The notes: generated by a model from the letters alone, not told the origin. Shown: positions 30,768 through 61,112, counted from the first letter of the stretch. The stretch: DNA of 64,000 nucleotides from an uncultured Candidatus Saccharibacteria bacterium (GCA_964523355.1 CAZFZV010000001.1:2213-66212), one strand, 5' to 3'. Translations and numbers: made by a program.

Positions 30768-31004
30768 TGTTAAAATTGGTATGTGGAGTGATTGGCTTTT
30801 GTCCGTAGCGGGAACGTGAATATTAACGACGGCAGGGTTAACTACGTCGGCGAGTGGGGCTGGGATTGGTCGCGTACCGCCCAATCATCTACCAACGCTT
30901 ACAACCTACAGTTCGGCGTATCCGCCATCAACCCGTCAAACAACAACAACCGTCGGAACGGTTTCCCCCTCCGCTGAGTATTTGCCGGTTTGGTGCCGAT
31001 CTTT
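30768..31004 (+). ncRNA. DGR-template-like cassette 1 (leader largely missing)
   Basis: TGTTAAAAT promoter, GTGG at 30783, template 30792-30974 (LAFVRSG...GFPLR, 11 AAC codons), 3' motif CCGGTTTGGTGCCGATCTTT at 30985-31004. Confidence 0.75.
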
Positions 31005-31042
31005 CATAGAAAATACTCCACAAAAGTGGAGTATTTTCTATG
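31005..31042. terminator. Probable bidirectional terminator between cassette 1 and tRNA-Lys
   Basis: Perfect 17-bp stem CATAGAAAATACTCCAC/GTGGAGTATTTTCTATG. Confidence 0.8.
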
Positions 31043-31117
31043 GTGAGTCGGGAGGGGCTCGAACCCTCGACACCCTGCTTAAGAGGCAGGTGCTCTAACC
31101 AGCTGAGCTACCGACCC
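31041..31117 (-). tRNA. tRNA-Lys(CTT)
   Basis: Cloverleaf, anticodon loop CT-CTT-AA, encoded CCA. Confidence 0.95.
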
Positions 31118-31190
31118 AGATACGTTTGTATTATATCACGTTAGAGGCGAAAATGAAAGCCTGATTTGGGTTTTATGCTAAAATAGTAGA

Positions 31191-32291
31191 ATGAAGATAC
31201 GCGAGAATGTACCAATTTCTGAGCTAACGACGATGCGACTGGGCGGCGCGACGCGGTATCTCGTGGAAGTTGAGCAGGAAGATGATATTCGAGCGGCCTA
31301 TGAGTTTGCGCGAGAGCGTGGTTTGCCGGTCTGGATTATGGGAGGGGGCGCGAATACGATTGGACGCGATGAGGGTTTCGCGGGCGTAATAATCCTGAAC
31401 CGATTGAAAGGAATTTTCGTACAGCAGGGCGATAAACTAGTCGCAGCGCAGGATTCGAATGACGCAGAGCTAGGGGATGAATTAACAATCGTGGCGATGG
31501 GGGGAGAAATTTGGGATGATTTGGTGAAATTTGCTGCCGAAAAGGGCTATACGGGGATCGAAGCAATGAGCATGATACCGGGGACGGTAGGGGCGGCGCC
31601 AGTACAGAATATCGGGGCTTATGGTCAGGAATTGTCGCAAGTCATAGAGTGGGTCCGAGCGTATGATACGAAGAGCGGCGAAATCGTGACTTTGACAAAA
31701 CCGGAGATGAAGATGGGCTACCGGACGACGCGGTTTAATACGGGAGAGGACGTCGGGAGATTCTTTATTATTTCAGTGACACTTAAGTTGCGGCGAGGAG
31801 AGCTAGAGCCGCCTTTCTATAATTCCCTACAGCGCTATATTGATGAACACGGCGTGAAGGATTTTTCGCCGGTAAGTATTCGGGAAATGGTTTGCGAGAT
31901 TCGCGACCAGAAATTACCTGACCCCGAGAAAGTGGCTAACGCCGGAAGCTTTTTCAAGAATGTACGTGTGACGCCGGAAGAGGTCGAGAGCGTGAAGGCA
32001 AAAGGAATGCCAGTATGGGTAAATGCGGACGGGAGCGGAAAGCTGAATTCTGGCTGGTTAATCGAAGCTTGTGGGCTCAAAGGTAAAGAGGCGTATGGAT
32101 TCCGCGTGAGTGATAAAGCGGCGCTGGTGCTAATCAATGAGAGCGCGAAATCGTATGCGGATTTGGCGAAAGCAAGGCAAGAGGTAATCGATGCGGTGCG
32201 GGAGAAATTTGGATTCGTATTAGAACAGGAGCCGGTAGAAATATATCATGAGACGAATAATATTCAAAGCGATGATGCGGGAGATGAATAA
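31191..32291 (+). CDS. murB: UDP-N-acetylmuramate dehydrogenase
   Basis: TTMRLGG, GGGAN, IPGTVGAAPVQNIGAYG, NAGSFFKN, EQEP. Confidence 0.95.
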   Translation: MKIRENVPISELTTMRLGGATRYLVEVEQEDDIRAAYEFARERGLPVWIMGGGANTIGRDEGFAGVIILNRLKGIFVQQGDKLVAAQDSNDAELGDELTIVAMGGEIWDDLVKFAAEKGYTGIEAMSMIPGTVGAAPVQNIGAYGQELSQVIEWVRAYDTKSGEIVTLTKPEMKMGYRTTRFNTGEDVGRFFIISVTLKLRRGELEPPFYNSLQRYIDEHGVKDFSPVSIREMVCEIRDQKLPDPEKVANAGSFFKNVRVTPEEVESVKAKGMPVWVNADGSGKLNSGWLIEACGLKGKEAYGFRVSDKAALVLINESAKSYADLAKARQEVIDAVREKFGFVLEQEPVEIYHETNNIQSDDAGDE

Positions 32292-33154
32292 TGAAAGAGT
32301 TGAATGGTCGAGAGCTAGCAGGCTATATGAAAGAGAACCAGGCGCATACGGTGCGCAGCTTAAAGGCGCGTGGCGTGCGGCCAAAGCTAATCATTATCCG
32401 CGATAATGACAATCCGGTGATTGCGAAATATGTACATTTGAAGCGACTGTACGGCGAAGATATAGGGGTAGAAGTCGAGGATTGGCTACGAGATGACGTC
32501 ACTAGAGCGATCCAGGAAGCGAATCAAGATACGAGCGTACATGGCATAATTGTGCAGCTACCACTCAAAGATAAGAGTATGACGGACGCCGTGGTAAGAG
32601 AAATTGTACCAGAAAAAGATGTGGATGGCCTCGCGAGCAATATTCACCAGATGAATAATGCTTCAGAAGAATATTCATCTGATGATATAATAAGTCAGCA
32701 AGTGCAGTTTGAATCGGCGACGGCGACGGCAATAAATTGGCTCTTGGCGGGGTATGATATCGATTTGGTCGGTAGACGAATTGCGATAGTAGGATATGGT
32801 AGGCTAGTGGGGGCGCCACTGGAGCGGATGTGGCGCAATTCGGGATATGACGTGAGCGTGTTTCGAAGCAAGGATAGTTTAGAAACATTGCCGGAGTATG
32901 ATGTGATTGTGAGCGCGACGGGTGTGCCGCATTTGATTAAAGATGAGTTAGTCGGAAGCGGAGCAGTCGTAGTCGATGCTGGGACGGCGAGTGAGGGTGG
33001 CGTATTAGTCGGCGATGTAGACGATGCAGTGCACGAGCGGAAAGATTTGAAAGCGATTACACCGAAAATAGGAGGAGTGGGGCCGTTGACGGTGACGGCG
33101 CTGTTTGAGCATGTTTTGATGGCAGCGGAGAGAGCTAGTCGCGTTTCAGCATAA
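32291..33154 (+). CDS. folD: Methylenetetrahydrofolate dehydrogenase/cyclohydrolase
   Basis: HGIIVQLPL, EKDVDG, VGAP, ITPKIGGVGPLT. Confidence 0.92.
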   Translation: MKELNGRELAGYMKENQAHTVRSLKARGVRPKLIIIRDNDNPVIAKYVHLKRLYGEDIGVEVEDWLRDDVTRAIQEANQDTSVHGIIVQLPLKDKSMTDAVVREIVPEKDVDGLASNIHQMNNASEEYSSDDIISQQVQFESATATAINWLLAGYDIDLVGRRIAIVGYGRLVGAPLERMWRNSGYDVSVFRSKDSLETLPEYDVIVSATGVPHLIKDELVGSGAVVVDAGTASEGGVLVGDVDDAVHERKDLKAITPKIGGVGPLTVTALFEHVLMAAERASRVSA

Positions 33155-34913
33155 CGGTAAAGGCTTCGGAGGGGATGTCGATTTTGCCGAAGCGTTTCAT
33201 GCGTGCTTTACCCTTTTTCTGTTTTTCGAGCAGCTTAGCTTTGCGGTCGCGATCGCCGGTATGAATCTTCACGGTAACATCTTTGCGATAAGCGCCGATG
33301 GTTTCGCGGGCGATGATTTTAGCACCGATAGCAGCTTGGAGGGCAACCTCGAAATTCTGACGCGGGATGACTTCCTTGAGCTTTTTCGTAATTTCGCGAC
33401 CGAGCGCATCGGCTTCGCTACGGTGGCACATAATACTGAGAGCGTCGATACGGTTCCCTGCCACCAGAAAATCGAGACGGACGAGGTCTTCGGCACGATA
33501 ATCCGACAGCTCGTAGTTAAAACTAGCGTACCCAGACGTAATGCTCTTCAGCTGGTCATAAAAATCCGTCAGGAGATTCGCCATCGGTGCCTCAAAGTCA
33601 ATCACAGCGCGATCTTCAATATAGCTAAGATTGGTCTGGTGACCGCGTTTTTCGTTAATCAGGCCGAGGACGCCGCCAATCATATTCTGCGGCAAGATAA
33701 TTTCGCCTTTCACCCAGGGCTCGCGAATCTCGAGAATCGTAGATTGGTCAGGGAGATCGGAAGCGGAGCGAATGTTGAGATTTTCGCCGTCAGTCGTCGT
33801 AACTTCGTAATTGGTCGACGGATTGGTCACGACAAGGTCAAGGTTGAATTCACGTTCGAGTCGCTCGCGAATAATATCCATATGGAGCAGCCCGAGGAAT
33901 CCAATACGCAGACCAAAGCCAAGGATGGGGGAGTTTTCCGGCTCAAAATGGAGGGCGGAATCGGAGAGGGCAAGCTTTTCGACGGCATCTTTCAAATCTT
34001 GGTACTGGTCGTTTGAGACAGGAAAAAATCCGGCGTAGACGAAAGGTAGGACATCTTTGTAACCTGGGAGCGGAGTAGTAGCAGGATGCTGCGCAAGCGT
34101 CACAGTGTCGCCGACTTTGGCTTCGCGGGTAGTCTTGAGGTTGGTCACAATATAGCCAATACTACCTTCGTCGAGACTGGCGGCGGGGGTCATTTTGGGA
34201 GTCAAGGCGCCAACTTCGAGCGCAAGACCGTTAGTCTCGGCGGCCATCATGCGGATTTCGGCGTTTTTCGGAATGACACCCTCAAAAACGCGAACATACA
34301 GAATGACGCCACGATAGTCGTCAAAGTAGGAATCGAAAATCAGGGCTCTAGTATCTCGTGAGTTGGTGGTCAACTCACGAGGGGCTGGAGCTTTTTCGAT
34401 GATCGTATTGAGAATATCGGTGACGCCTTGGCCAGTTTTGCCGGAGGCGAGGATGATATCCTCGGCCGGACAGCCTAGAAGATTGATAATCTGGGCGCTG
34501 ACTTTCTCGACGTCGGCGGCGGGGAGGTCGACCTTGTTAATCACGGGGATAATATACAAATCTTGCTCGAGTGCCAGATAGACATTGGCGAGGGTTTGCG
34601 CTTGGATACCTTGCGTAGCATCAACAACTAAGACCGCCGCTTCGACGGCTTGGAGCGAGCGGGAAACTTCATAAGAGAAATCGACGTGCCCTGGCGTATC
34701 GATCAGGTTCAAAATATAACCTTGCCAACGCATCTGGACGGGGGCGAGCTTAATCGTAATTCCCTTTTCGCGCTCCAGCTCCATAGAGTCAAGCAACTGT
34801 GATTTCATTTCACGCTGCGAAACTGTACCAGTGAGCTCCATCATGCGGTCGGCGATAGTCGATTTGCCGTGGTCGATATGAGCGATGATACAGAAATTGC
34901 GAATTTTATCCAT
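33135..34913 (-). CDS. lepA: Elongation factor 4
   Basis: IRNFCIIAHIDHGKST, DTPGHVDF, GFLGLLH, LLEKQKKGKARMK. Confidence 0.97.
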   Translation of the reverse strand: MDKIRNFCIIAHIDHGKSTIADRMMELTGTVSQREMKSQLLDSMELEREKGITIKLAPVQMRWQGYILNLIDTPGHVDFSYEVSRSLQAVEAAVLVVDATQGIQAQTLANVYLALEQDLYIIPVINKVDLPAADVEKVSAQIINLLGCPAEDIILASGKTGQGVTDILNTIIEKAPAPRELTTNSRDTRALIFDSYFDDYRGVILYVRVFEGVIPKNAEIRMMAAETNGLALEVGALTPKMTPAASLDEGSIGYIVTNLKTTREAKVGDTVTLAQHPATTPLPGYKDVLPFVYAGFFPVSNDQYQDLKDAVEKLALSDSALHFEPENSPILGFGLRIGFLGLLHMDIIRERLEREFNLDLVVTNPSTNYEVTTTDGENLNIRSASDLPDQSTILEIREPWVKGEIILPQNMIGGVLGLINEKRGHQTNLSYIEDRAVIDFEAPMANLLTDFYDQLKSITSGYASFNYELSDYRAEDLVRLDFLVAGNRIDALSIMCHRSEADALGREITKKLKEVIPRQNFEVALQAAIGAKIIARETIGAYRKDVTVKIHTGDRDRKAKLLEKQKKGKARMKRFGKIDIPSEAFTVMLKRD

Positions 34914-34935
34914 AATAGTGCTAAAATTATATCAT

Positions 34936-35826
34936 ATGAAGATAATTTTGGCAATTTCGGGGGGCGTGGATTCGATGGTGATGCTCGACATGGCGCGGAA
35001 AATGGAGGGATTGACCAAAGAAGACTTAATCGTTGCGCATTTTGACCATGGGATGCGGGAGAATTCGGGCGAAGATGCGGAATTTGTGCGGAGGAAAGCG
35101 GGAGAGTATGGCCTAGAATGCCGGATCCAGCGCGGCAGACTTAAGCCCGGCGCGGCGGAGGCGGAGGCGCGGAAAGCGCGGTATGCATTCTTGGAGACGA
35201 TCCGGCGCGAAATTTATGAGCAGAGCGAGGAGGAGAGCGAGATTTGGACTGCGCATCATCTGGACGACTTAGTAGAATCCGTAGCGATTAATTTCATCCG
35301 CGGGACGGGCTGGCGGGGACTGGCCGTACTAGATAGTAGGGGAGTAAGGCGGCCATTTTTGGATCGTAAAATCGTTGATCAGCCGATGGATAAAGCGGCA
35401 ATTTTTAGATATGCCGGGGCGCACGGGATTGAGTTTCGGGAGGATCAGAGTAACTCATGGGATGAATATTTGCGCAATCGGCTACGTCACCAGATGAATA
35501 ATAACGGTAGGCTGAGTAGCGATAAAAAGCTGCGGATTTATGAGCTTTGGCGACAACAGCGGCAACTAAAGACGGAGATAAATACGTTGGTGGATATAGT
35601 AATACCGTCGGAGGATAAAGAGTGGCGACGGAAGTGGTTTGAGGGGCTAGAAAAAGATATAGCGCTAGAACTATTGAGGCGAGGGGCTGGCCGCAAGGGC
35701 ATAGAAGCGACACGGCCACAGCTGGAGGATTTCAGGCAGGCGATTATCAGCTATGGTTCGGGGAAATATTTTAATTTACCCGGGGACAAACTGGTGAAGC
35801 TAAAAAAAGAGACTTTTGAAATCTAA
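34936..35826 (+). CDS. tilS: tRNA(Ile)-lysidine synthetase
   Basis: AISGGVDS PP-loop, AHFDHG, RKARY, AHHLDD, EDQSN, RNRLR. Confidence 0.92.
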   Translation: MKIILAISGGVDSMVMLDMARKMEGLTKEDLIVAHFDHGMRENSGEDAEFVRRKAGEYGLECRIQRGRLKPGAAEAEARKARYAFLETIRREIYEQSEEESEIWTAHHLDDLVESVAINFIRGTGWRGLAVLDSRGVRRPFLDRKIVDQPMDKAAIFRYAGAHGIEFREDQSNSWDEYLRNRLRHQMNNNGRLSSDKKLRIYELWRQQRQLKTEINTLVDIVIPSEDKEWRRKWFEGLEKDIALELLRRGAGRKGIEATRPQLEDFRQAIISYGSGKYFNLPGDKLVKLKKETFEI

Positions 35827-35867
35827 TTTTGTGCTATAATAGCGGCAGATTAAAGTGGAGTTTGTAT

Positions 35868-36701
35868 ATGATTACGAAAGCAATTATTCCAGTCGCAGGT
35901 TGGGGGACACGGAGATTACCGATTACGAAGATTATTGAGAAGTCGATGCTGCCGGTCGGAAATCGGCCGTTGGTAGATTACTCGGTCCAAGAACTGATTA
36001 AGGCGGGCGTGAAAGATATTTACATGGTAATTTCTAATGTCGAGCCGTGCCAAGTAAAAGCCTTTTATCAGAAAAATACAGCGCTGGATCAGTACTTGAT
36101 TGACAGAGGTAAAGAAGATAGATTGAAGCTGGCGCATACTTTGCCGGACGATGTAAAAATTCACTACGTACAGCAGGACCCGGCCGGAAAATATGGAACG
36201 GCGGTGCCGATTGCGATGGTGGTAGAAGAATACAAGATTGATGAGCCAGTGCTGGTCTTCATGGGCGATGATTTTATTTGGAATCCGGACGGAGAGTCGG
36301 CTAGTGATTCCCTGCTACAGGCGCTACAAGAGGAGGGTGAGTCGGCAATTCTGGGCGTAGAAGTGGACAAAAATCAGGTAGATAAATATGGTGTGTTGTC
36401 GGTCGAGGATGGGAAGCTGACTGCGATTGTAGAGAAGCCAGAAGTCGAAGCGGCGCCGTCGAATTTGATTAACGTCAGCAAGTATGTCATGTCGCCAGAG
36501 CTATTAAAAGAAATTGTGGATTATGTACAAGAGCACGATTTTGGGCCGAAAGATCAGGAGTATCTTGTCACCGATCCGATTGAGTCGTACTTGGAAAAAG
36601 GCGGCGTAATGCGAGTTGCGCCGACGACTGGCGAATACCTTGATGGGGGCAGCGTCGAGGGCTGGCTACACGCGAATAACGTAGTCTGTGGCGGAGAATA
36701 A
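35868..36701 (+). CDS. galU: UTP-glucose-1-phosphate uridylyltransferase family protein
   Basis: KAIIPVAGWGTRRLPITK, KSMLPV, VEKP. Confidence 0.8.
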   Translation: MITKAIIPVAGWGTRRLPITKIIEKSMLPVGNRPLVDYSVQELIKAGVKDIYMVISNVEPCQVKAFYQKNTALDQYLIDRGKEDRLKLAHTLPDDVKIHYVQQDPAGKYGTAVPIAMVVEEYKIDEPVLVFMGDDFIWNPDGESASDSLLQALQEEGESAILGVEVDKNQVDKYGVLSVEDGKLTAIVEKPEVEAAPSNLINVSKYVMSPELLKEIVDYVQEHDFGPKDQEYLVTDPIESYLEKGGVMRVAPTTGEYLDGGSVEGWLHANNVVCGGE

Positions 36702-36801
36702 TTCCTTAAAGTTTATATCACTACACGAATAATTGTAAAAGTCAATATGCGTGTGGTGATATATTTTGTGCTATAATCGTAATATGAGGAAACACTTAGA
36801 T

Positions 36802-38391
36802 ATGACTTATCAGGAAAAAATTGGACACGTAGTGGAGCGGCTACGGACCGAAAAAGGTTGGACGCAAATGCAGCTCGCGGAGGCGATTGGGAGTAGCCAG
36901 TCGGCGGTGCATCGGATTGAGAAAGGCGGCCAGAATATTTCGCTGGAGCTAATCCGGAAGTTGTCTCAAGCGCTGGGCGGGCAGATTCTGTCGATTAATG
37001 ACAGCGTTTCGCAGAGTTACTGTATTCATGGCGGGAAAGAATTACACGGCGAGGCGACTATCAATACGAGCAAAAATGCGGCTGTGGCGTTGCTCTGTGC
37101 GAGTTTGCTGAATAGCGGGGTGACGACGCTGAGGCATGTGGCGCGGATTGAAGAAGTGTTTCGGATTATCGAAGTGCTGGAGTCGCTAGGAGTTAAGTGC
37201 CGTTGGATAAACTCCAATCGCGATTTAGAGATTACGCCGCCACGTAAACTGGACCTCGAGAAGATTAATGTCGAAGCGGCGCGGCGGACGCGGTCAGTGC
37301 TGATGTTCATGGGGCCGCTGTTACATAAGTTTAAGAAGTTTCGGCTGCCTTATGCGGGAGGATGCACGCTCGGGACACGCACGATTGAACCGCATCTGAG
37401 AGCCTTGTCGACGTTTGGACTAAAAGTCGATGCGACGAACTGCAGTGGGTTCTATGAGGCGACGGTGGCGCCCGCGAAACCGACAATGAAGCCAAAAGAT
37501 GAAGAGATGCCGCGCAATATTGACCAGGTGGGGCCGAAGTTCCCGCCGAAGCGGATTGTGCTGATTGAGCGCGGAGATACGGTGACGGAAAATGCTTTGA
37601 TGGCGGCGGCGTTATACCCGGGCGAGACGACGATCGTGGGCGCATCATCAAATTATATGGTCCAAGATTTGTGCTTTTTCTTGGAAAAGCTAGGGGTGAA
37701 AGTGCGCGGGGTGGGGTCGACGACTTTACGAGTCTCTGGTAAGGCGACGATTGATATGGATGTGGAGTATTCGCCAGCTGAAGATCCGATTGAGGCAATG
37801 TCGTTTATAGCGGTGGCGCTAGTGACGCAGTCGAATTTGACAATCCGACGGGCGCCGATTGAATTTCTCGAGATTGAACTGGAGATTTTGCGCAGTATGG
37901 GCGCGAGGATAGAGCGATCGCCAGAGTATTACAGTACAAATGGACGAACGCGGCTGGTGGATTTGAAGATTAAGAAGTCTAAGTTGGTGGCGCCGACAGA
38001 TAAGATTGCACCGATGCCATTCCCGGGGCTGAATATTGATAATCTGCCGTTCTTCGGCGTGATTGCGGCAACCGCGGAGGGGCGAACGCTGATTCATGAC
38101 TGGGTGTTTGAGAATCGAGCAGTATATATTACTTACCTTGAGAGCCTGAATGCGAAAGTCGAGCTCCTAGACGCGCACCGGGTGTATATTGAGGGGCCGA
38201 CGAATTGGCGAGCAGCTGAGCTAGTAGCGCCGCCCGCATTGCGACCGGCGGTCGTAGTATTGATAGCCATGCTGGCAGCGCCAGGGACTTCGATCTTGCG
38301 GAATATTTATTCAATTAACCGCGGATACCAAGATTTCGCAGCCCGACTGAATAATCTGGGAGCTGATATTCAGCCGCTGAGCGGAATTTAG
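36802..38391 (+). CDS. murA: XRE-family HTH fused to UDP-N-acetylglucosamine 1-carboxyvinyltransferase
   Basis: N-terminal WTQMQLAEAIGSSQSAVHRIEKG; SKNAA, catalytic GGC, PFPG, LRPA, RGY. Confidence 0.9.
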   Translation: MTYQEKIGHVVERLRTEKGWTQMQLAEAIGSSQSAVHRIEKGGQNISLELIRKLSQALGGQILSINDSVSQSYCIHGGKELHGEATINTSKNAAVALLCASLLNSGVTTLRHVARIEEVFRIIEVLESLGVKCRWINSNRDLEITPPRKLDLEKINVEAARRTRSVLMFMGPLLHKFKKFRLPYAGGCTLGTRTIEPHLRALSTFGLKVDATNCSGFYEATVAPAKPTMKPKDEEMPRNIDQVGPKFPPKRIVLIERGDTVTENALMAAALYPGETTIVGASSNYMVQDLCFFLEKLGVKVRGVGSTTLRVSGKATIDMDVEYSPAEDPIEAMSFIAVALVTQSNLTIRRAPIEFLEIELEILRSMGARIERSPEYYSTNGRTRLVDLKIKKSKLVAPTDKIAPMPFPGLNIDNLPFFGVIAATAEGRTLIHDWVFENRAVYITYLESLNAKVELLDAHRVYIEGPTNWRAAELVAPPALRPAVVVLIAMLAAPGTSILRNIYSINRGYQDFAARLNNLGADIQPLSGI

Positions 38392-38523
38392 GGAAATTGC
38401 GGGGCGAGCGGACTTTTTGTAAAAAACATCAAGCTTGTGTTTGTAAGTTGGGCGAAATTTGATATATAGTGACAGCATACGCGTATTTATAATGCTATAA
38501 TAAGAGTAGTAAAGGAAGGTAAT

Positions 38524-39609: not shown

Positions 39610-39615
39610 GCAGGG

Positions 39616-40392: not shown

Positions 40393-40446
40393 GCTATGGT
40401 TGTTCTTAGGTTGCGTTGCTCTATGACGGCTCTTATGGCTGCTAGA

Positions 40447-41037: not shown

Positions 41038-41090
41038 AATTAATTATAGTATAGCACAGTTTACGATAAATGCATTAATCCTTACTCGGA

Positions 41091-51954: not shown

Positions 51955-52032
51955 AGTTCACTCCTCACTACATACACCCACGACTCATTCATATTTTCAT
52001 TTTAGCATAAGTCGGATGTTTGGTTAAGCATT

Positions 52033-52470
52033 TTACCAGCGAATTCCAAACAAGAAAGCAATCCATTGCTCGAAATTACTCATGGTGTCGGGCGCGATAG
52101 CCTCCGTAGCGCTAGGTTCCGGAGCAGACGGTTCAATATTGTCTGAACTTTCAGGTAGATAAACCATAGTCTCTCCGGGCAACAACTTGTCTTGATATTT
52201 GCGAGCGGCAAGCTCTTTATATTCATCGGAAAGATAGTATTCGTTCTCGAGTTCAAGCGTTTCAACTTCAAGCTCGAGGAGGGCTTTTTCGCGTTGGCGA
52301 TTCATGAGTTCTTGGGCGAGGCCCCAGTTGCGCGTCATAGAGGAGATTGAACCCCAAGTCCAGACAAGGCAGAAGACGAGAGCAATCATCAAGATAACAT
52401 TATCAAAAACAAAGAGGTCGTGTTTCAGCCAATACTGTGTTTTGCGTAACCGCGTTTTTAACTCGCCCAT
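52033..52470 (-). CDS. FtsB/DivIC-like septum formation initiator protein
   Basis: One TM helix, coiled coil, Y.ELAARK....LPGETMV. Confidence 0.65.
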   Translation of the reverse strand: MGELKTRLRKTQYWLKHDLFVFDNVILMIALVFCLVWTWGSISSMTRNWGLAQELMNRQREKALLELEVETLELENEYYLSDEYKELAARKYQDKLLPGETMVYLPESSDNIEPSAPEPSATEAIAPDTMSNFEQWIAFLFGIRW

Positions 52471-52522
52471 GGTTATATATTATTATAGCACTGAACCAAT
52501 AAAATCACAGTATGCCCGGTTA

Positions 52523-52953
52523 TGCTAAAATAGGAACGTGGATGTAGCAGTCCATGGGAACTGCGGGCGGTTTTTGAGGTCAGGCTCCAATCTCCAGAAG
52601 TTCTCGTTTCTCAAAGATCGTGAGGTTGCGCTTCTACGATAAAGGATATTATTGGAAGTCTAGATTTCGAGCTAAGTCACGGTTTAGTCTCGCACAAAGT
52701 AGCCTCTTTGCTTGGGTTGTAGCTCATAGTTGGTTTTCTGGCTTTTGTCCGTAGCGATGCTATCCGCCTTAACGAGGGCACTGTCGGATACGCTGGCAAC
52801 AACGGGTACGCCTGGTCGCGTACGGCTAAATCGTCCACCAACGCCTACAACTTGGACATGAATCCTACAAATGTCAACCCGTCGAACGCTAACAACCGCT
52901 GGTACGGTTTCCCCCTCCGCTGAGGAGTTACCGGTTCGGTGCCGATCTTTGAG
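52523..52953 (+). ncRNA. DGR-template-like cassette 2
   Basis: TGCTAAAAT, GTGG at 52538, 200-nt structured leader, template 52738-52920 (LAFVRSDAIRLNEG...RWYGFPLR), 3' motif 52931-52953. Confidence 0.8.
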
Positions 52954-52966
52954 CAAGGCGTTATCA

Positions 52967-53400
52967 TGATAGAATGAGAGAGTGGGCATTACCCATGGGA
53001 ACTATAATAAGCACTTGAGGTCATGCTCCGGCTGATTGTCGTTCTCTCGTTCAAGATCGTGAAGCCATTCTCTAAGCTTATTAGGAAAGTAATCTCTAGA
53101 GGATAGAAAGTTAACTCTAGCTAAGGTTAGAGCTGTATGTAGTTGGCTTCTTTTTCCGTATTGACGATGGATACTATGGATTTATGCATTTGGCTTTTGT
53201 CCGTAGCGGGTATGTTAATCTCCCTGGCGGCAATATCAACAACGTCGGCCACAACGGCTACGACTGGTCGCGTACGGCGAACTCAGCTACCAACGCCTAC
53301 CGTCTGAACTTCAACCCTACGGGCATGAATATGAATGCTGAAAACCGCTACTGGGGTTTCTCCCTCCGCTGGAGAACTGCCGGTTCGGTGCCGATCTTGA
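52967..53400 (+). ncRNA. DGR-template-like cassette 3
   Basis: TGATAGAAT, GTGG at 52982, 208-nt leader, template 53190-53369 (LAFVRSGYVN...RYWGFSLR), 3' motif 53380-53400. Confidence 0.8.
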
Positions 53401-53442
53401 TGATTATATAAAAAATAAGAGTCGATAGGCTCTGCTTGCGTA

Positions 53443-53458
53443 TTGGTGGGGGCGGTTG
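53443..53458 (-). repeat. Duplicate of the tRNA(CAT) 3' end (att-like)
   Basis: TTGGTGGGGGCGGTTG is identical at 53443-53458 and 53501-53516. Confidence 0.8.
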
Positions 53459-53501
53459 ATCAGCGTAAAAAATGAGAACCAAATGGTTCTTCTTTTAGCG
53501 T

Positions 53502-53577
53502 TGGTGGGGGCGGTTGGGCTCGAACCAACGACCAAGCGGTTATGAGCCGCCTGCTCTAACCCCTGAGCTACGCCCCC
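53502..53577 (-). tRNA. tRNA with CAT anticodon, most likely tRNA-Ile2
   Basis: Cloverleaf, loop CT-CAT-AA, paired 1-72, overall resemblance to Ile2-type tRNAs; tilS is present in the window. Confidence 0.85.
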
Positions 53578-53635
53578 AAGGATATATATATATTATATAT
53601 TTATTTCTAAGAGACAACAAGGTCTTAAAATTGCA

Positions 53636-53730
53636 GGCGACAGCCCTTGAACTGGCGAGGATAGCGAATAGAAAGAATGCTAGCATTCTTTCTTGAGCGA
53701 CGCAGCCAGCAAATGGGCGACAGCCCTTGA
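53636..53730. repeat. 15-bp direct repeat flanking a 24-bp palindrome
   Basis: GGCGACAGCCCTTGA at 53636 and 53716; AGAAAGAATGCTAGCATTCTTTCT between them. Confidence 0.7.
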
Positions 53731-53772
53731 CAATCCCCTAAAGTTTTGCGAGAATAGGACTATTGTTGGTTG

Positions 53773-53862
53773 TTACCGCCGTCGTTTCCGTACGACGGTA
53801 ACGTTAATTTTGAACAAGGTGAATCTAAACGCAAAGCGCCAGATTCGGAACTTGATCTCCAT
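53773..53862 (-). CDS. 29-aa cationic/aromatic small peptide
   Basis: MEIKFRIWRFAFRFTLFKINVTVVRKRRR preceded by AGGAGGAAGGAGG. Confidence 0.5.
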   Translation of the reverse strand: MEIKFRIWRFAFRFTLFKINVTVVRKRRR

Positions 53863-54155
53863 CAGAGCCTCCTTCCTCCTTTCCCCATTTTGTTAACTGA
53901 TGCTAATTGCCAGGACTGATCGCCCTGCATTCAACTTAGCACAAAGTGAGTAAAAGTTGCAAACATAGGCGTCTTTATAGTTGCAACAATCTGCTTAAGA
54001 TTGCTTAATATGCTATTTTGTAGTAGAATTAAATAACTATTGATTGATAGAAGAATCAAGGACCTTAAAATGATAAAGACAGTTCAGTTATTGTTCTGAG
54101 GTTCTCTAATCTTCTACATCAATCTACAACTATAAAATAAAAAGGAGTGGAAAAA

Positions 54156-55280
54156 ATGAAGAAAAGATTTTTTGTAGCATTGATGGTAGTAGCATGTTTG
54201 ACGCTTGGAGGGTGCGGAGATAGCAATACTTCGGTTGATAATATGGACGCGGAAGTACACGAGAGCGAAGATGTGTTGGAGGCGGAAGATATTACAACGG
54301 AAGATTCTGAGGTTGACATGTCAGAAGAAGAAACGGATGGGGGTGATGAGGAAAGTAATGCTGAGGTAAAAGGGATTGTGGCGATGGTATCACGCGCAAC
54401 GATACATTCAAATACTATTCAAATCATTAGTATTGACCCGGACACTGGCATTCAGGAAATTATTTCCGAATTTCTTATAAAAAGTAATAGTGACGAGGCT
54501 TACCAACGGGCGGATAACCGGGTCGTAACGCGTAACTGGTTTTCTAATGATTATACCAAGATGGCTATCAGCAAGCGTTTTTTAAATGCAAGTCAAAGTT
54601 ATCTAAATGAGGATCATGCTGGGTGGATTGATACTAACGGAGACTTTTTCGATATGACCGAAGCGAGCGGACTGAGACCGGAGGACACCTTTTCTAATAC
54701 GGACGTGCTGAGACACAAAACACTGGGGTTTTTCGATGATGACTTTGTGTTTTTAGATACCGCAACTGAGAAAGTCTACTACATGCCGTTTGATAATGTC
54801 TCCGAAATGGGAGCTGCTGAGTTAAGCGAAGAAAACGACTATATATACATGTATCTGCTTAAGCACCCAGTAAACGTACGGCCAACGTGTCAAATTGATG
54901 AACATACCTATATTGTAGACCTTGGGATCGATCAGACATCCAGACCTAGTCCTCTCAGTGTTATTTACGATTTTGATACCGACGAGGAGAGATCATATAT
55001 TCCAGAGAGTAGTCGCTGGAATTGGAGTGGAGTCATGAGTCCGGACGGAGATATGGTAGCCTTTTTCTCGTCGTTGAAAGATGGTATGGGGAAGGTAGAA
55101 CTATACAAAGTGCCATCGTCTGGGGGTGAACCAACGAAGATTACGTTAAAAGCCAATGACGACGTGATTGTGGATTTGACTGCATTACCCGCTCCGTCAT
55201 ACGAGCATCCATCTGGTGGAGTGGATGATTTTCTTAAGCTTCATGATGCTCAATATTGTCGTTTGTTGGAGTGGAGATAA
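54156..55280 (+). CDS. Lipoprotein with acidic linker and TolB/PD40-like C-terminal repeats
   Basis: Lipobox LGGC, SPDGDMVAF, LYKVPSSGGEP; AAGGAG RBS. Confidence 0.75.
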   Translation: MKKRFFVALMVVACLTLGGCGDSNTSVDNMDAEVHESEDVLEAEDITTEDSEVDMSEEETDGGDEESNAEVKGIVAMVSRATIHSNTIQIISIDPDTGIQEIISEFLIKSNSDEAYQRADNRVVTRNWFSNDYTKMAISKRFLNASQSYLNEDHAGWIDTNGDFFDMTEASGLRPEDTFSNTDVLRHKTLGFFDDDFVFLDTATEKVYYMPFDNVSEMGAAELSEENDYIYMYLLKHPVNVRPTCQIDEHTYIVDLGIDQTSRPSPLSVIYDFDTDEERSYIPESSRWNWSGVMSPDGDMVAFFSSLKDGMGKVELYKVPSSGGEPTKITLKANDDVIVDLTALPAPSYEHPSGGVDDFLKLHDAQYCRLLEWR

Positions 55281-55300
55281 TTAAGAAAGGTGGGATGAAA

Positions 55301-55804
55301 ATGACAATACCTAATATTACACAGCGTCGGAAGGCGAAGGTATCCAGTGCGTCAGAACAATCGATAAAGTTACCGTTTCAGAAGCGGATTGCGATTCGTA
55401 ACCCAAACCGACATTATGTCGGAAGCAGTTCTAAGGGTGATTGTCATATTTGCGGGAGATGTATGGGCAACGATAATTGTGTTCCGTGGTATGAAAGCAT
55501 GTGTGAGAGGTGCCGCCAACGATATATAGATGATCTGGCCAATGGGTGGACAACAACTATTTCGGAAGAAATTGACCCAAAGTACCAAGTTGTACTTTGG
55601 CGATTTCAGCAATGCATACTGTTTGACCTAAAAGATGAGAAAATCTCCGAAGCAGAAGCACGTGAAGAATTAAAGGAAGTGGTTGGCATTGCACGAATAG
55701 AAATTGACAAGATAAAACGCCAAGAAGTGGAGCGCACTGCCCGGTCTAATGAATGGGAATCTGAGTCGCAGCAAATAAAAAGTCTCTCTCACCGCCTTTT
55801 GTAG
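55301..55804 (+). CDS. Hypothetical protein with Cys cluster (possible Zn finger)
   Basis: CHICGRC...C...CERC; AAAGGTGG RBS; start could also be 55295. Confidence 0.55.
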   Translation: MTIPNITQRRKAKVSSASEQSIKLPFQKRIAIRNPNRHYVGSSSKGDCHICGRCMGNDNCVPWYESMCERCRQRYIDDLANGWTTTISEEIDPKYQVVLWRFQQCILFDLKDEKISEAEAREELKEVVGIARIEIDKIKRQEVERTARSNEWESESQQIKSLSHRLL

Positions 55805-55887
55805 GCAAGTATCTTCTTCAGCTGTCTTTATCTTCAAATCCGAATAGAGTCGAAGCACAGCTGCTTCGCCTATTCAAAGAATGCTTA

Positions 55888-55915
55888 TGCCCGGTTCTCT
55901 ATGGAGGACCGGGCA
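55888..55915. terminator. Hairpin between convergent genes
   Basis: TGCCCGGTTC/GGACCGGGCA. Confidence 0.65.
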
Positions 55916-55923
55916 AAACTTTT

Positions 55924-58900
55924 CTATGGGAGAATAATGCCGCCACCGTTATTGTTGTTTCCACCTCCATTGTTGTGCTGGCGCATCTGACGCTCAAAGT
56001 CGCGAATCTGTGAACCAGTTAGGTCGCCATTTTGACCGTTACGAGGTATAACAATACCACTGTCATTTTCTGTGAAACCTCCAGGTACTGGCGCTGAATT
56101 GCCTGAATTATGTTGTACGTGAAGTGAGTATGGAATTTCTGTACGGCCGTCAAGCGCGCGGATATTATTTAGCTTCATCGCTGATTCTTGCGTTAATGTA
56201 ACTGCCCCATTATTGGCAGCATTCAATGTTGCTTCGGCAATATTAGCCAATTGTGCGCGTTCATCAGCGCCAATAGACCCAGAGCTAATACTAGCAGAGA
56301 TGCGATTTAGCTCAGCCTGACTCGCATTCGCCATAGAACGTATGCTGGTGTTATCAACCGTGCTAACACTGGAGTTGCTACCTGTCCCTCCCGTAGGTGC
56401 ATCGTACTCCATATTGGCAATTGTATTGAGGCCGCGGCCAACATCACCTTTCACAGCAATATTTTCGTTATTCATCGCTTCACGAGCTTGAGCGATCAAA
56501 TTATTGCGCGCTTCACCTTGAATATTACCGTTTCGGAGGCCTTCAATAGCCATGCGACGGTATCCATCATCAGTATTAGCGAGTTGTTCTGCGCCAATAT
56601 CTCGCGCTTTCTCTTGTAGGTAGTTCTTGTTTGCAAGAAATGTGTTTCCGTCATTATCATGTGTCGATATGATATCGGATGCATTATAGGCGTAGCTTCC
56701 ACTGGCGAGTTTATTAAGGTTCTTAAATGTGTTTGGATTCTTAGCCTTATAATCACCTCCTGCCGCATTCCGTACAGCGCTAGCTGCCCATTGGATGCCT
56801 TTGTTGGAGGTTTCGCCAGCGAGCGCGGAAGCACGTACCCCACCGTTAAGTACACTGTCAACATACTGCCGACCTGCGTCGCTTGTATTAAGGTTATGCA
56901 TTGCTGATGTAAATCTTGCCCTTGCGTCAACATTTGTGCTGTCTGCCCTAAGCTCATTCAACGCCTCCTCGAGCTTCGCAGCAGCGGAGCTTTCCTCTGC
57001 GAATGTCCCATCGTTTTCCCAAGCATCCGTATAATCCTTAGCTAGCTCCATCACATGCCTTTGAGTAAATGCGTCTGTACGGTCGCGATTTGCCAGATCT
57101 TGCGCTAAGACGGCATTCTGTGCTCGATTACTGCGGCGATTATGCGAACTTTTAGCCATGCTTGCCAACCGTCCGTTACCTTGACGCATTCGAGCATTAA
57201 TGCCCTCCATCGGATGCATAACATTGTTTAGCCAACGCCGCCGTCTGCCTAATTCGCGATTCTGCTCACGATTAATATATCTTTGCGCATTATGACCGGC
57301 TAGTCGAGCTTGGCGATCTCTGTAGCCCTCTGACCGACGAATTCCGCCCGTGACGCTGTGGCCCAAGCGACTTCCAAATGTAGAAAGTTTGGTTCCCAGA
57401 TTCCCCATGGCCTGGAATGAACTTTTTAAGATTGTGGGCACGAAGAAAATCGGGATAGCTTGAATTAGAACAGAAACGAACACATAAAATATGCCCGAAT
57501 CACCATTAGCATTCGCTAGTAATAACTTTGATGCAAACTGTCCTCCACCCATTAAAGCTCCACAAATTGGATACACAATTAGCATTCCAAAGAACAGCTT
57601 CCACCAACGGTTAAAGACATTCTTCGTGTTCGGGAGCGCATAACAGATTATTGCCAATGGCGATAACGCAACTAAGATAATGATCGCTGCTTGGCGTACG
57701 CCAAGCAATAAGAAAAACGCCAAAATACTAATAATCCCTACGATAAGCAGAAGTACAAACGGCATAATCCAGAATTCAACCGTATTCGCAAGTGCAATCC
57801 CACTCCCGACGACAAGTGCTGCTGAAACTACCGTGGCGATAATTGCGCCCAATCCACCGTTGCCATATTCGCTACCGATTGATACTCCTTCGCTAATGCC
57901 AACAAATAGTTCTTTAATATCGTGCCCGATGATATTTGATAAGTCGACGGCAATTTGACATAGGAAAAAGGATAAATTAACAAGTACCGCTACTAAAATC
58001 AAGCTCGGTAGCATCTTTTTCACACCATAATTACTAACACCAAACCCTGTAATCTGCGAGAGGATAATGACTAGAAGAGCTATTGCAAAAGCAATATTAG
58101 CCAAATTACGGAATGTCTCCCAAGCTTGGTGTGTGCCACTAGTGTCGTTGACATATTCGACGTCGGTCTGGAGATAGCTCTGCTCAATAAAATCGTAAAA
58201 CCAATCGGCCGCTTTACCAAGTGCTTGTACTACTGGGCAAACAATCCAACCAAGTGCACCAGAAGCCTTAGAGCAGGGGCTAGCCTCTTCTTGTGTACCG
58301 CCGCCATCATTATTCGCGTCATCCGTAATATCACCAACGATATCGTCAGTTGTGGTGTCATTACCGCTCTCGTCTTTGTCTTTTTCGGTCTTATCAAGCG
58401 CTTTTTTGACAGCTGGAGCGGTATCGTTAATACGCTCAACGGCGCCATCGCAAGTGTGTTTCCCGGATTTCTTGCTCACCCAGCTACTGTCCCAATCGTT
58501 CTTAACGATATCTTGGTTAGAGTAATATTTCTTCTCCATTTTGCCGGTGCTAGGATTCGGAACCTTAACTTCAAAGTAGTTGTTTTTATTCATCAAATCC
58601 GGATCACCGCTATAAGGACTTGATTTGCTACAAGCGGTCGTAAAATCATTGAAGTACAAGAAATAATTAATTAAGTCGTCTGTGAAAGTTCCCCGATCTC
58701 CCCATGAAACCAGATAGCTATTGCTTTTCTTTTTGTTATTGTAGAGCTTTTTCACATGATCCATCGCTCCATCCGTATTCAGCCAGAATGTAATACCATC
58801 TTGTCCGATCGCATCGCTACATTTAGCAACTTTGTCGCCCCTAATACCACCATTGCTAAAATAAGGCACCAACAGACCGGGTTTGTCGCCATCGCAAACC

Positions 58901-59298
58901 AGCTCTTTCTCGGAAATACCTAGTGTAGACTTAAATAGATTCACTAAGTTTTCGCTATTATCATCGCAATATATCGTCCCATTATTAACCTTGCCCTGTA
59001 TTTGGTTTTCCAGCCAGGCTCCAGTCGGTATTTCGATATGTTCTCCCCAACCTCCAAGACTATTAAAGAAATTCTTGCTAGGGTTACCGCCAGAATATTG
59101 TATAGAGGCATCTTCTTCAACTTTCTGCTTGACGCACTTACTGAACACATTCGCCACTAACTGAATTTTTCCGGCTTCTTTCATCTGGCTCAAAGCTTCT
59201 GAGGTCTTGATCGCCATTACTTGCGAACCAATTACTGTGCCGAGCAGCGTAGAAATGACCGCTGCCCAGATTACAAATTTTTTCCAGCCGTTTTTCAT
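55924..59298 (-). CDS. Large VirB6/TrbL-like membrane protein
   Basis: Signal/TM helix, Cys-containing ectodomain, LGWIVCP, AWETFRNLAN, multi-TM core, long low-complexity C-terminal tail. Confidence 0.7.
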   Translation of the reverse strand: MKNGWKKFVIWAAVISTLLGTVIGSQVMAIKTSEALSQMKEAGKIQLVANVFSKCVKQKVEEDASIQYSGGNPSKNFFNSLGGWGEHIEIPTGAWLENQIQGKVNNGTIYCDDNSENLVNLFKSTLGISEKELVCDGDKPGLLVPYFSNGGIRGDKVAKCSDAIGQDGITFWLNTDGAMDHVKKLYNNKKKSNSYLVSWGDRGTFTDDLINYFLYFNDFTTACSKSSPYSGDPDLMNKNNYFEVKVPNPSTGKMEKKYYSNQDIVKNDWDSSWVSKKSGKHTCDGAVERINDTAPAVKKALDKTEKDKDESGNDTTTDDIVGDITDDANNDGGGTQEEASPCSKASGALGWIVCPVVQALGKAADWFYDFIEQSYLQTDVEYVNDTSGTHQAWETFRNLANIAFAIALLVIILSQITGFGVSNYGVKKMLPSLILVAVLVNLSFFLCQIAVDLSNIIGHDIKELFVGISEGVSIGSEYGNGGLGAIIATVVSAALVVGSGIALANTVEFWIMPFVLLLIVGIISILAFFLLLGVRQAAIIILVALSPLAIICYALPNTKNVFNRWWKLFFGMLIVYPICGALMGGGQFASKLLLANANGDSGIFYVFVSVLIQAIPIFFVPTILKSSFQAMGNLGTKLSTFGSRLGHSVTGGIRRSEGYRDRQARLAGHNAQRYINREQNRELGRRRRWLNNVMHPMEGINARMRQGNGRLASMAKSSHNRRSNRAQNAVLAQDLANRDRTDAFTQRHVMELAKDYTDAWENDGTFAEESSAAAKLEEALNELRADSTNVDARARFTSAMHNLNTSDAGRQYVDSVLNGGVRASALAGETSNKGIQWAASAVRNAAGGDYKAKNPNTFKNLNKLASGSYAYNASDIISTHDNDGNTFLANKNYLQEKARDIGAEQLANTDDGYRRMAIEGLRNGNIQGEARNNLIAQAREAMNNENIAVKGDVGRGLNTIANMEYDAPTGGTGSNSSVSTVDNTSIRSMANASQAELNRISASISSGSIGADERAQLANIAEATLNAANNGAVTLTQESAMKLNNIRALDGRTEIPYSLHVQHNSGNSAPVPGGFTENDSGIVIPRNGQNGDLTGSQIRDFERQMRQHNNGGGNNNNGGGIILP

Positions 59299-60287
59299 TA
59301 CTCCTCCAATTTCTCGATTACCCGCTGCATCGCGTCAACTACGGCATTCTCCTCACCATAAGTAATCTCGTCATTCTCATCGTACGCAAAGAAAATTGCC
59401 TGCGGCACGGAAAAACTTTGACTCATCGATTCTAGAGTATCCTTGTAGTCTGCGACAATCTCCGTACAATCCGCAGCAATACTATTGCCATCTAGCGCAC
59501 AGTTATTCGCATCCATTGCGATCTGCAAATCTTTCTTCTCTTGGACAAACTCATCGAACCGCTCCGCTACGGTCGCTATAGTATAGTTCTCACTTGTCAG
59601 ATAATCTTTGAGAGGATCGGTGTTCTCGGTTTTGTAAACAGTATACAGTATATTGTATAAGTCCACGGATTGTCTAAAGGCTCCGGCCTGCTTCGCTAGG
59701 GTGTCCTGTATTTTTTTCACATCGTCGCGCACCTCTGTATCAAGCTTGTCAGCATTGAACTTCGTAAGCTTATCTCGAAATTGAACGAACTGCTCAATAT
59801 TTTGATTAAGCATATCTCGTGTCTCGGGATTCATAATGTCATTGGTGGTTTTTTCGCGAAAATAGACGTCCTGGAAGAAAGACTCAATTTGACGTGTGGA
59901 GTTAAGATTCTGCTGGAATAGGGCTAAGATATCTTGATTATTGTTTTTGAACAAAAACGGCAGGGTTATTAATAGGACAAATAGACCCACTGCTCCAACA
60001 ATTAAGGCTATGATTAACGGTCTTCTATTGCTACGGGGTCTATTATTGACTACCACATCCCCCTCCCCACTGCCTACTGTCTGTATTGGGTGTAGGGGGT
60101 CTGTCGGCAAGGGAGCGTTCAGCGGCGTCGGAGGAGTGAGGTTGGCGGAGGAAATGATTTTATTGTTGGCGGTCGAATCTGGGGAGACTAGAGAATTTGT
60201 AGGGTGGGTGGGTGGCTGAACTGGAGTATCAAACGCGTCAGCGTTTCGCGCTCCGGCCGTGCCCAAAGAATCCTTACCTTCATCCAT
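59298..60287 (-). CDS. Single-pass membrane protein coupled to the VirB6-like gene
   Basis: Pro-rich N-terminus, one TM helix, helical ectodomain; TAATG overlap at 59298. Confidence 0.7.
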   Translation of the reverse strand: MDEGKDSLGTAGARNADAFDTPVQPPTHPTNSLVSPDSTANNKIISSANLTPPTPLNAPLPTDPLHPIQTVGSGEGDVVVNNRPRSNRRPLIIALIVGAVGLFVLLITLPFLFKNNNQDILALFQQNLNSTRQIESFFQDVYFREKTTNDIMNPETRDMLNQNIEQFVQFRDKLTKFNADKLDTEVRDDVKKIQDTLAKQAGAFRQSVDLYNILYTVYKTENTDPLKDYLTSENYTIATVAERFDEFVQEKKDLQIAMDANNCALDGNSIAADCTEIVADYKDTLESMSQSFSVPQAIFFAYDENDEITYGEENAVVDAMQRVIEKLEE

Positions 60288-60371
60288 ATTTATTATGTTA
60301 GCATAATCGGCATGTGATGACAAGTTGGGATTTTGTGAATGACGTGAGCGGAAAATGTTGTCGAGTTGATG

Positions 60372-60446
60372 CTAGAGTCTGCCACTGCATCCGCCGAGCA
60401 TGGGACAAGCCACTACCAATAACGCTACTATCTTTCTTCTCCGCAT
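60372..60446 (-). pseudogene. Truncated lipoprotein remnant (signal peptide only)
   Basis: MRRRKIVALLVVACPMLGGCSGRL-stop with GGAGGTGG RBS; closely resembles the N-terminus of the 54156 lipoprotein. Confidence 0.55.
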
Positions 60447-60538
60447 ATTACCACCTCCATTCTCTGCGGCATTGGTCTACAAGTTGCGTGAATCTTCTGG
60501 TAGCACGTAATGCTCCAGATTGAGTAATTTTTCCTCAT
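60428..60538 (-). CDS. 36-aa small ORF of unknown function
   Basis: MRKNYSIWSITCYQKIHATCRPMPQRMEVVICGEER after AAGGAGG. Confidence 0.35.
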   Translation of the reverse strand: MRKNYSIWSITCYQKIHATCRPMPQRMEVVICGEER

Positions 60539-60681
60539 TGCTTCTTATCCTCCTTCTTGTCAATGTACTTATTCCCAGTGGGTAGTCCTCCGATTTTACT
60601 ATGATTCCCTATTTTATGCAATTATAAGCGGTTTCAAGAGTATTTCATCCCTCTAATGGTACGAGCGTGAGTTATCATACA

Positions 60682-61112
60682 TGCTAGAATGAGACTGTGG
60701 ATAAAAATATCCATGGGGTCTGAAGCGGTTCACTGAGTTTTTACTCCAACTAGCGAATGCCCTCAATAATTGAAGATCGTGAAGTTACTCTCTAATCCTA
60801 GACAGGAAAGGGTCGAGAAAAGCTGCTTGGGCCTAGCTATGGCTAGTCACCACTTGAAGTAACTTCTTTAGTCTGAGCTTGCATCGGATAACGTTTTGGC
60901 TTTTGTCCGTAGCGGGGTTATCTATCCCAACAATGGTACGGCTGGCAACGTCGGCAACAACGGCAACTGGTGGGCGCGTACTGCTAAATCCGCTACCAAC
61001 GCCTATGATTTGGGCATGAATCCCTCCAATGTCAACTCAGAGTCAAATAATAACAACCGTTATCATGGTTTCTCCCTCCGCTGGAGGTTGCCGGTTGCGG
61101 TGCCGATCTTTG
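60682..61112 (+). ncRNA. DGR-template-like cassette 4
   Basis: TGCTAGAAT, GTGG at 60697, 199-nt leader, template 60896-61081 (LAFVRSGVIY...RYHGFSLR), 3' motif 61091-61112. Confidence 0.8.

Follow-up and report, generated by a model that had tools for sequence, protein, structure and literature searches.

Dispersed template-RNA genes of a probable diversity-generating retroelement in a rodent-gut Saccharibacteria chromosome

The stretch of DNA considered here, referred to as the window, comprises 64,000 nucleotides (64 kb) from an uncultured Candidatus Saccharibacteria bacterium (GCA_964523355.1, CAZFZV010000001.1:2213-66212). It is ordinary chromosome, with genes for MurB, FolD, a ClpB-like ATPase, an M1 peptidase, pilin-like proteins, four tRNAs and restriction-modification systems. 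Between its genes lie four template-like units, U1 to U4, all on the plus strand and without a long open reading frame (ORF), which an earlier note, made from the sequence, had compared with the template repeats of diversity-generating retroelements (DGRs). The usual picture of a DGR, on which the search software is also built, is that of one reverse transcriptase (RT), one neighbouring template and nearby targets. The earlier note had seen neither an RT nor a target near the units, and it was found that the 64 kb hold no RT, RT accessory gene or target copy detectable by motif regular expressions or by Pfam searches of 18 ORFs; tblastn of the window with the RT of a relative, its accessory ORF and the target proteins described below gave no match either.

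Four template-like units in the window

The units are defined by sequences common to all of them. The 5' anchor TGGCTTTTGTCCGTAGCG, 18 nt long, occurs at four exact sites in the whole window (30793, 52739, 53191 and 60897), where 0.03 sites would be expected by chance at up to three mismatches, and the 17-nt 3' anchor GGTTTCYCCCTCCGCTG likewise occurs at four exact sites (30960, 52906, 53355 and 61067; 0.09 expected). The tail motif GGTGCCGATCTT is present in four exact copies. Read in the frame AFVRS...GF(P/S)LR, units U1-U4 contain 12, 11, 12 and 14 asparagine codons among 59-61, and their adenines are distributed over codon positions 1, 2 and 3 as 18-21, 19-21 and 2-5, the codons ending in A numbering 5, 3, 2 and 3. 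Each unit carries the motif TGnTA(A/G)AAT followed exactly 6 nt later by GTGG, a distance that about 33 related copies preserve. These are the common anchors and tail, the Asn-rich and wobble-A-poor frame and the promoter-like motif reported in the earlier note; the four-unit pattern is confirmed as real and far above chance. In U1 the promoter is fused straight to the 5' anchor, without a leader; in U2-U4 a conserved leader of about 200 nt lies between the two. The unit coordinates given previously took in this leader, but it had been left without interpretation. The features are as follows, all on the plus strand.

30768-30786, +: U1 promoter, extended -10 TGTTAAAAT, 6 nt, GTGG (putative start); read from the sequence and kept in about 33 copies
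30793-30976, +: U1 template repeat, 5' anchor 30793-30810, 3' anchor 30960-30976; codon statistics
30985-31003, +: U1 tail CCGGTTTGGTGCCGATCTT
31008-31039, +: stem-loop past the U1 tail, 14-bp stem and AAAA loop; read from the sequence
52523-52541, +: U2 promoter TGCTAAAAT, 6 nt, GTGG; conserved
52538-52738, +: U2 predicted structured leader (nhmmer E 2e-35; RNAalifold and covariation), with P1 hairpin GTGGAT..ATCCATGGG, apical GAGGTCAGGCTC hairpin, AAAGATCG at 52613-52620 and nested helices
52739-52922, +: U2 template repeat; anchors, codon statistics; orthologue family L019+/L041/L055
52931-52950, +: U2 tail, with CGATCTTT (52943-52950) predicted to pair with leader 52613-52620 (helix 4)
52967-52985, +: U3 promoter TGATAGAAT, 6 nt, GTGG; begins 17 nt past the U2 tail
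52982-53190, +: U3 predicted structured leader, AAGATCG at 53053-53059; nhmmer E 2e-36; covariation
53191-53371, +: U3 template repeat; anchors, codon statistics
53380-53398, +: U3 tail CCGGTTCGGTGCCGATCTT
60682-60700, +: U4 promoter TGCTAGAAT, 6 nt, GTGG; conserved
60697-60896, +: U4 predicted structured leader, GAAGATCG at 60772-60779; nhmmer E 1e-31; covariation
60897-61083, +: U4 template repeat; anchors, codon statistics; orthologue family L015/L023/L056
61091-61110, +: U4 tail CCGGTTGCGGTGCCGATCTT
61139-61155, +: U4 terminator-like GC-rich stem-loop

A promoter scan placed a TG-extended -10 element for U1 at 30748-30776 and one for U2, again with the TG, at 52504-52531. Stem-loops comparable to that past the U1 tail follow most related copies, and the hairpin of U1 may serve as a terminator or bind a protein.

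Related copies, leader RNA and adenine-specific transfer

Related copies were collected by a two-anchor scan of one genome per species in which both anchors were demanded. The scan returned 70 copies at 61 loci outside the window (74 copies including U1-U4), and the further cassettes for which the earlier note had proposed a search do exist. Nearly all of them sit in three Saccharibacteria metagenome-assembled genomes (MAGs), with about 20 per genome, and they fall into two classes. Template (T) copies have the layout of promoter, leader of about 200 nt, AAY-rich cassette and tail CCGGTTCGGTGCCGATCTT. Variable (V) copies are AAY-poor, read on to ...GFPLRCLYPGSA-stop at the end of small ORFs and often have a conserved CCGGCGCCACCACCATAGTACAGTTACCAT before and TGCCTCTACCCAGGTAGTGCC after them. 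The T loci are syntenic orthologues over the three MAGs, with 9-11 per genome, and V copies are about as many; a genome of about 1 Mb, that of an episymbiont, appears to hold around ten template-RNA loci and about as many small variable genes. On comparing orthologous copies between the MAGs, it was observed that T interiors are 97-100% identical and V interiors 49-68% identical at three of five loci, so that the template stays invariant while the variable region differs between genomes. A scan of viral contigs with the leader motif gave chance matches only, in high-GC coding DNA; the corresponding scan of metagenomes gave mostly chance matches and, after filtering, 17 true elements, one of which (L092) has diverged anchors with the same leader and tail.

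The earlier note had proposed that ORFs ending in ...GF.(L/V)RC should exist whose differences from a template fall almost only at template adenines, and such pairs were found in relatives. The differences lie at template A in 17 of 17 cases for the V copy of L044 against the T copy of L059, in 9 of 9 for L047 against L015/L023 (the U4 orthologue family) and in 9 of 10 for L021 against L019+ (the U2 orthologue family), the T and V partners of all three pairs sitting on different contigs. In another genome, the V copy of L187 differs from a U1-type template by 13 changes at A and 5 elsewhere. Homology between T and V copies runs from one base before the 5' anchor to CGCTG(CCTCTA), beyond which the template enters its tail and the target enters CCCAGGTAG...; the end point at CGC-TG is the one that had been read from the four units.

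The adenine bias holds in the window's own samples as well. In contigs assembled from X1-X4, four sequencing runs that contain the window, two derivatives of its templates were identified. A 294-nt contig (run X4) reaches from one anchor of the U2 template to the other, has V-type flanks and shows 19 differences; among the 16 differences listed, 12 are at template A. A 171-nt contig (X1, X4) is a mosaic in which U3 53209-53293 is joined to U2 52842-52922, nearly all of its differences being at A. To judge from these contigs, U2 and U3 look active in this genome. Depth ratios, which are rough, correspond per genome equivalent to about 4-5 T copies when taken from the tail and to about 8-14 T and V copies together when taken from the 3' anchor.

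Exchange of templates was observed at an orthologous V locus in three species, where flanks about 95% identical enclose three unrelated interiors that are bounded exactly by the anchors: one derives from a U4-type template, one from a U2-type template and one from a template without a match. The variable region of L051 is a mosaic of two templates. The simplest reading of these sequences is that any template may home into any target, because the anchors are common to all templates and targets; recombination between anchors could add to the exchange.

The leader was studied as a consensus fold derived from an alignment of 24 T copies, in which 46 pairs outside the template were counted. The fold consists of a 5' hairpin GTGGAT...ATCCATGGG, a helix capped by an invariant GAGGTCAAGCTC hairpin, a GAAGTTA/TAACTTC helix around two variable hairpins, a small CGCTG/CGGTG hairpin at the 3' end of the template and a long-range helix between AAAGATCG of the leader and CGATCTTT of the tail, which can form in 24 of 24 copies and closes the template into a loop. 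Over the 24 copies, 94.3% of the cells are paired and compensatory two-sided changes occur in 27 pairs. The covariation score was 0.458, as compared to 0.213 for shuffled alignments (0 of 500 reached the observed value) and 0.09-0.14 for slid partners, and the leader is best described as a covariation-supported structured RNA. Within the window nhmmer finds exactly three leader matches, at U2, U3 and U4, and none at U1. The L002 copy that is syntenic with U1 has a leader; U1 has lost its own and is probably a crippled or dead template. At the gathering score of Rfam, tRNAs alone match in the window, and lowering the threshold to E<=5 over U2-U3 gave nothing credible. A contig in runs X20 and X25 of one study, corresponding to window 52926-53398, skips 53088-53207, that is, the distal half of the U3 leader and the 5' anchor; it is either a strain variant or an assembly artefact.

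Reverse transcriptase, targets and chromosomal setting

An RT was found in relatives of the window. In L031 and L048, a 405-aa protein with IGNLTSQ...YVDDF, motifs that are a hallmark of DGR enzymes, is encoded directly upstream of one T unit. It scores above the Pfam RVT_1 threshold, and the closest chain in the PDB is 8ub7_A (E 7.7e-21), which is presumably the RT of the Bordetella phage (bRT), judging from its length of 328 aa and from the bRT cryo-EM preprint. In these relatives the RT lies on other contigs than most of the templates. The earlier note had proposed that templates are uncoupled from the RT, and this holds for most of them, but the uncoupling is not total, because one template in the relatives adjoins the RT. 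A 325-aa ORF (L031 2615-3592, minus strand) lies upstream of the RT and overlaps the start of its gene. It had no match in Pfam, NCBIfam or PDB, and these searches yielded no accessory protein of the Avd, HRDC, MSL or CH1 kind. According to surveys, the accessory proteins of DGRs from the candidate phyla radiation (CPR) are poorly characterised; the 325-aa ORF is a candidate for a novel DGR accessory protein.

Runs X1, X2, X3 and X4 contain the window at depths of 20-21, 25-26, 104-109 and 44-48, respectively, and in the same runs a contig about 84% identical in nucleotide sequence to the RT and 325-aa ORF of L031 is present at depths of 20.3, 27.6, 125.5 and 45-48. Because the depth profiles match over four samples, it is very likely that this RT belongs to the genome of the window. 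The DGR-class RT that the earlier note had suggested looking for was thus found in relatives and at the depth of the window.

The targets are small. The variable regions end ORFs of 80-150 aa, and V-like proteins in a collection of 5.8 billion proteins are all 80-200 aa long and have no Pfam domain. A V subfamily of 140-150 aa has its own promoter and Shine-Dalgarno sequence, and many other V ORFs are 5'-truncated to the last 80-100 residues. It was also considered that the V copies might be the ends of long target genes lying upstream and read by recoding or frameshift. This was dropped because the homologues are all of 80-200 aa, the genuine size of the family. The V proteins and FISUMP proteins (Fib_succ_major; TIGR02145, PF09603) have a C-terminal pattern in common, ...CP.G..LP...GSFYNLL...YWS..A.....AY.L.......R..G..(L/V)RC, but the V proteins measure only 80-150 aa and many are 5'-truncated; the resemblance is limited to the C-terminal two thirds of the domain. 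A relative, P0087, matches TIGR02145 over profile positions 42-175 of 176 (E 2e-7). A PDB profile search with V proteins gave no match.

Several features of the V genes were noted in passing. Some look leaderless, with TATAAT, 3 nt and ATG (L187 2990-3010; L047 3300-3345), and an AT-rich palindrome GGTTAAAATTTTT...AAAATTTTAACC stands before many of them. V copies also form tandem in-frame arrays (P0019, P0032) and convergent pairs that meet tail to tail, in which about 46-250 nt separate the inverted 3' anchors, and others are fragments shortened at the 5' end to graded lengths; examples of these arrangements include L057 7048-7457, L187 3062-3696 and L189 3283-3468. They suggest that the target module has repeatedly been duplicated or inserted at ectopic sites. 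In L052, a 190-aa tyrosine recombinase (Phage_integrase; 4375-4947) is convergent with a V copy, and a second small V ORF lies at 443-775.

As to the host, a Candidatus Saccharibacteria MAG from mouse gut has a 303-kb contig that is syntenic with the window over about 5 kb (73-81% nucleotide identity), and the window was detected in rat and mouse gut sequencing runs. Exact-protein look-ups with the window genes gave no match. Two of the units have tRNA genes on the opposite strand as neighbours, U1 lying about 40 nt before tRNA-Lys (31041-31117) and U3 about 100 nt before tRNA-Met (53502-53577). A defence-like cluster at 6805-18477 comprises an SNF2/helicase protein, a 1019-aa Eco57I/MmeI-type methylase fusion and a 1357-aa fusion of a ResIII helicase with an Eco57I methylase. 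Between U3 and U4 (55924-60323) there are ORFs of 1124 and 341 aa, neither with a Pfam match; homologues adjoin a V copy in L007, where that of the large ORF is multi-pass-membrane-like by sequence. The same T and V elements were met on contigs filed as Lachnospiraceae (L009 and L035, NZ_CALPDG010000030.1; L007, L014, L046 and L052). One of these contigs, 46 kb long, belongs to the cultured isolate Mediterraneibacter agrestimuris DSM 111629, and another, of 176 kb, comes from a MAG. Synteny with the window (55818-62367) was seen for L009 and L007, at 70-73% identity. The contigs suggest either that these assemblies contain Saccharibacteria DNA, owing to an episymbiont in co-culture or to mis-binning, or that there has been horizontal transfer.

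Explanations and relation to known systems

On the evidence above, it is very probable that U1-U4 are DGR template-RNA genes on the chromosome of a rodent-gut Saccharibacteria member whose RT is encoded elsewhere in the genome. In its essentials, this is what the earlier note had proposed, and the RT, the A-specific pairs and the invariance of the T copies were all found. Each unit would be transcribed from its own extended -10 promoter to give an RNA of about 410-435 nt, in which a structured 5' leader of about 200 nt is followed by 181-187 nt of AAY-rich template repeat and then by a short tail at the 3' end. Covariation suggests that the tail (CGAUCUUU) pairs back on the leader (AAAGAUCG), and since it would do so, the template would be looped out of a common scaffold. 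The RT, together with the adjacent 325-aa ORF, may recognise this scaffold in trans on any template RNA. By the Bordetella phage paradigm, copying would proceed from the 3' anchor to the 5' anchor with misincorporation opposite A, of which the A-specific outcome is observed, and the cDNA would then replace the inter-anchor stretch in the small FISUMP-like variable-protein genes around the chromosome, an outcome that is observed as well. The orthologous loci support the view that any template can overwrite any target and that two-template mosaics may arise.

A more far-reaching proposal, to which we give about even chances, is that of a combinatorial DGR network in which one RT would serve about 5-11 separately transcribed template RNAs, any of which, singly or as mosaics, could be written into about 5-13 small variable-protein genes because the scaffold and the homing anchors are universal. 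The 5' leader would act in it as a permuted device for recruitment or priming of the RT without Avd, mosaics would arise by template switching, and the choice of cassette would be stacked on adenine hypermutation.

A number of observations weigh against the DGR interpretation or parts of it. The RT is tied to the window by depth over four runs, with no physical link. An Avd homologue, the other protein named in the earlier note, was not found, and the 325-aa neighbour of the RT matches nothing. The long-range leader-tail helix is mostly invariant, with covariation in its two outer pairs only, and the runs flagged 'RNA?' are low-depth Logan contigs in which genes and T units are covered alike. 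U4 is intact and its cognate target was not seen in the X1-X4 contigs; a variable region derived from U1 was not found in X1, X2 or X4. About 30 of 36 V copies differ from every known T copy at many non-A positions and are either old or inactive or made from templates that were not sampled. The exact V protein P0045 occurs on 9 contigs from at least 4 different assemblies, and therefore the rate of turnover may be low. As to the targets, the FISUMP-class C-terminus named in the earlier note is recognisable as a pattern, but its scores lie under the curated cut-offs (14.4-31.8 against 41.65 bits; 14.7 against 33.9), and AlphaFold2 run on a 141-aa V protein with a 31-sequence alignment gave an unusable model (pLDDT 36). 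No signal peptide is evident in the targets, the sequences having been inspected by eye without a predictor, and ORFs of 80-150 aa of this kind do not bear out the surface proteins that had been expected as targets.

Some of these points would fit templates that are DGR components by descent only, the dispersed copies being relics and the RT-adjacent template the one still used, with U1-U4 either in decay or kept for some other reason: the U1 leader has been lost, U1 and U4 lack a cognate variable region in the window's runs, most V copies match no template cleanly and one V protein is identical on 9 contigs. Such a decayed state is nevertheless improbable, given that in relatives the templates of the clean A-only pairs (L059, L015/L023, L019+) stand apart from the RT, on different contigs, that the dispersed T copies are 97-100% conserved with intact promoters and compensatory leader changes, and that V copies derived from U2 and U3 are present in the window's own samples. 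Still less probable, and indeed very doubtful, is a role of the units as silent donors in gene conversion without an RT or in site-specific cassette exchange, of the pilS/pilE or shufflon type, with the anchors as recombination sites. Plain recombination leaves the A-confined differences (17/17, 9/9, 9/10) unexplained, as it does the exclusion of A from codon position 3, the DGR-class RT joined to one unit and the conserved structured leader with its own promoter. The anchors are identical in all copies, V copies are often arranged in convergent pairs, and the orthologous V locus with its different cassettes, like the mosaics, would be expected of such exchange. A small tyrosine recombinase does stand beside the V copy of L052, but it is the only one seen, and Pfam searches of the 18 window ORFs found none beside U1-U4. 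Hardly any credence can be given to lectin-like pseudogene fragments or a functionless repeat family; the units are intergenic, have no long ORF and match neither Rfam nor Pfam, as such debris would, but their synteny across species at 97-100%, the conserved promoter, the compensatory base-pair changes and the kept AAY-rich frame all speak against it.

The DGR interpretation can be set beside the DGR of Bordetella phage BPP-1 (mtd with its variable region, avd, template repeat, Sp RNA and brt), in which sequence is likewise transferred, with A-specific changes, from a template that stays invariant into a variable region at a gene's 3' end. Among solved structures, the RT described here is closest to 8ub7_A, the presumed bRT. 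In BPP-1 a duplex forms between sequences upstream and downstream of the template repeat, the 'cPRT Stop' (10.1101/2023.10.23.563531), with which the leader-tail duplex compares, the template here lying within a structured RNA as well. The initiation of mutagenic homing (IMH) sequence and its hairpin have been described for DGRs (PMC5758913), and their counterparts here are the GC-rich border on the 3' side and a small palindrome that follows the variable region. The differences are these: there are about 5-11 templates per genome, as against one in BPP-1, each of them self-promoted and most of them separated from the RT by tens of kb or by whole contigs; the large structured RNA domain precedes the template on the 5' side, while Sp lies on the 3' side; no Avd was found; and the anchors are common to all templates and targets, the latter being ORFs of 80-150 aa. 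Remote and multiple targets are known, one RT acting in trans on several variable regions (surveys PMC5758913, PMC11661182), and the template repeat and the RT can form separate transcription units (PMC5758913). The multi-target DGRs and the cassettes with at least two template repeats in such surveys are local cassettes, unlike the dispersed units of the window.

Among systems that work without an RT, pilS/pilE of Neisseria, vls of Borrelia and the shufflons likewise have several unexpressed donors, conserved borders and mosaic expressed copies. Two features set the units described here apart from such silent cassettes: transfer bears the A-mutagenesis signature of reverse transcription, and the donors are themselves genes for RNAs that begin with a structured leader. 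In the searchable literature, which did not include Paul et al. 2017 on CPR DGRs, no genome-wide set of self-promoted template-repeat RNA genes with a common leader, no templates interchangeable at one target and no such DGRs tied to Saccharibacteria were found; an earlier description of this layout may exist. The new points are the leader-template-tail RNA genes and the universal anchors, and an RT-driven, A-specific DGR is of a known kind.

If confirmed, these findings would mean that DGR finders centred on the RT undercount both templates and targets. The leader-template-tail RNA would be a compact, naturally modular scaffold, rich in natural variants and compensatory changes, from which the features recognised by a DGR RT could be worked out, and it would be a candidate for programmable mutagenesis with multiplexed templates. 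For the organism, it would mean that a symbiont with a reduced genome could gain a very large diversity of binding proteins from little DNA.

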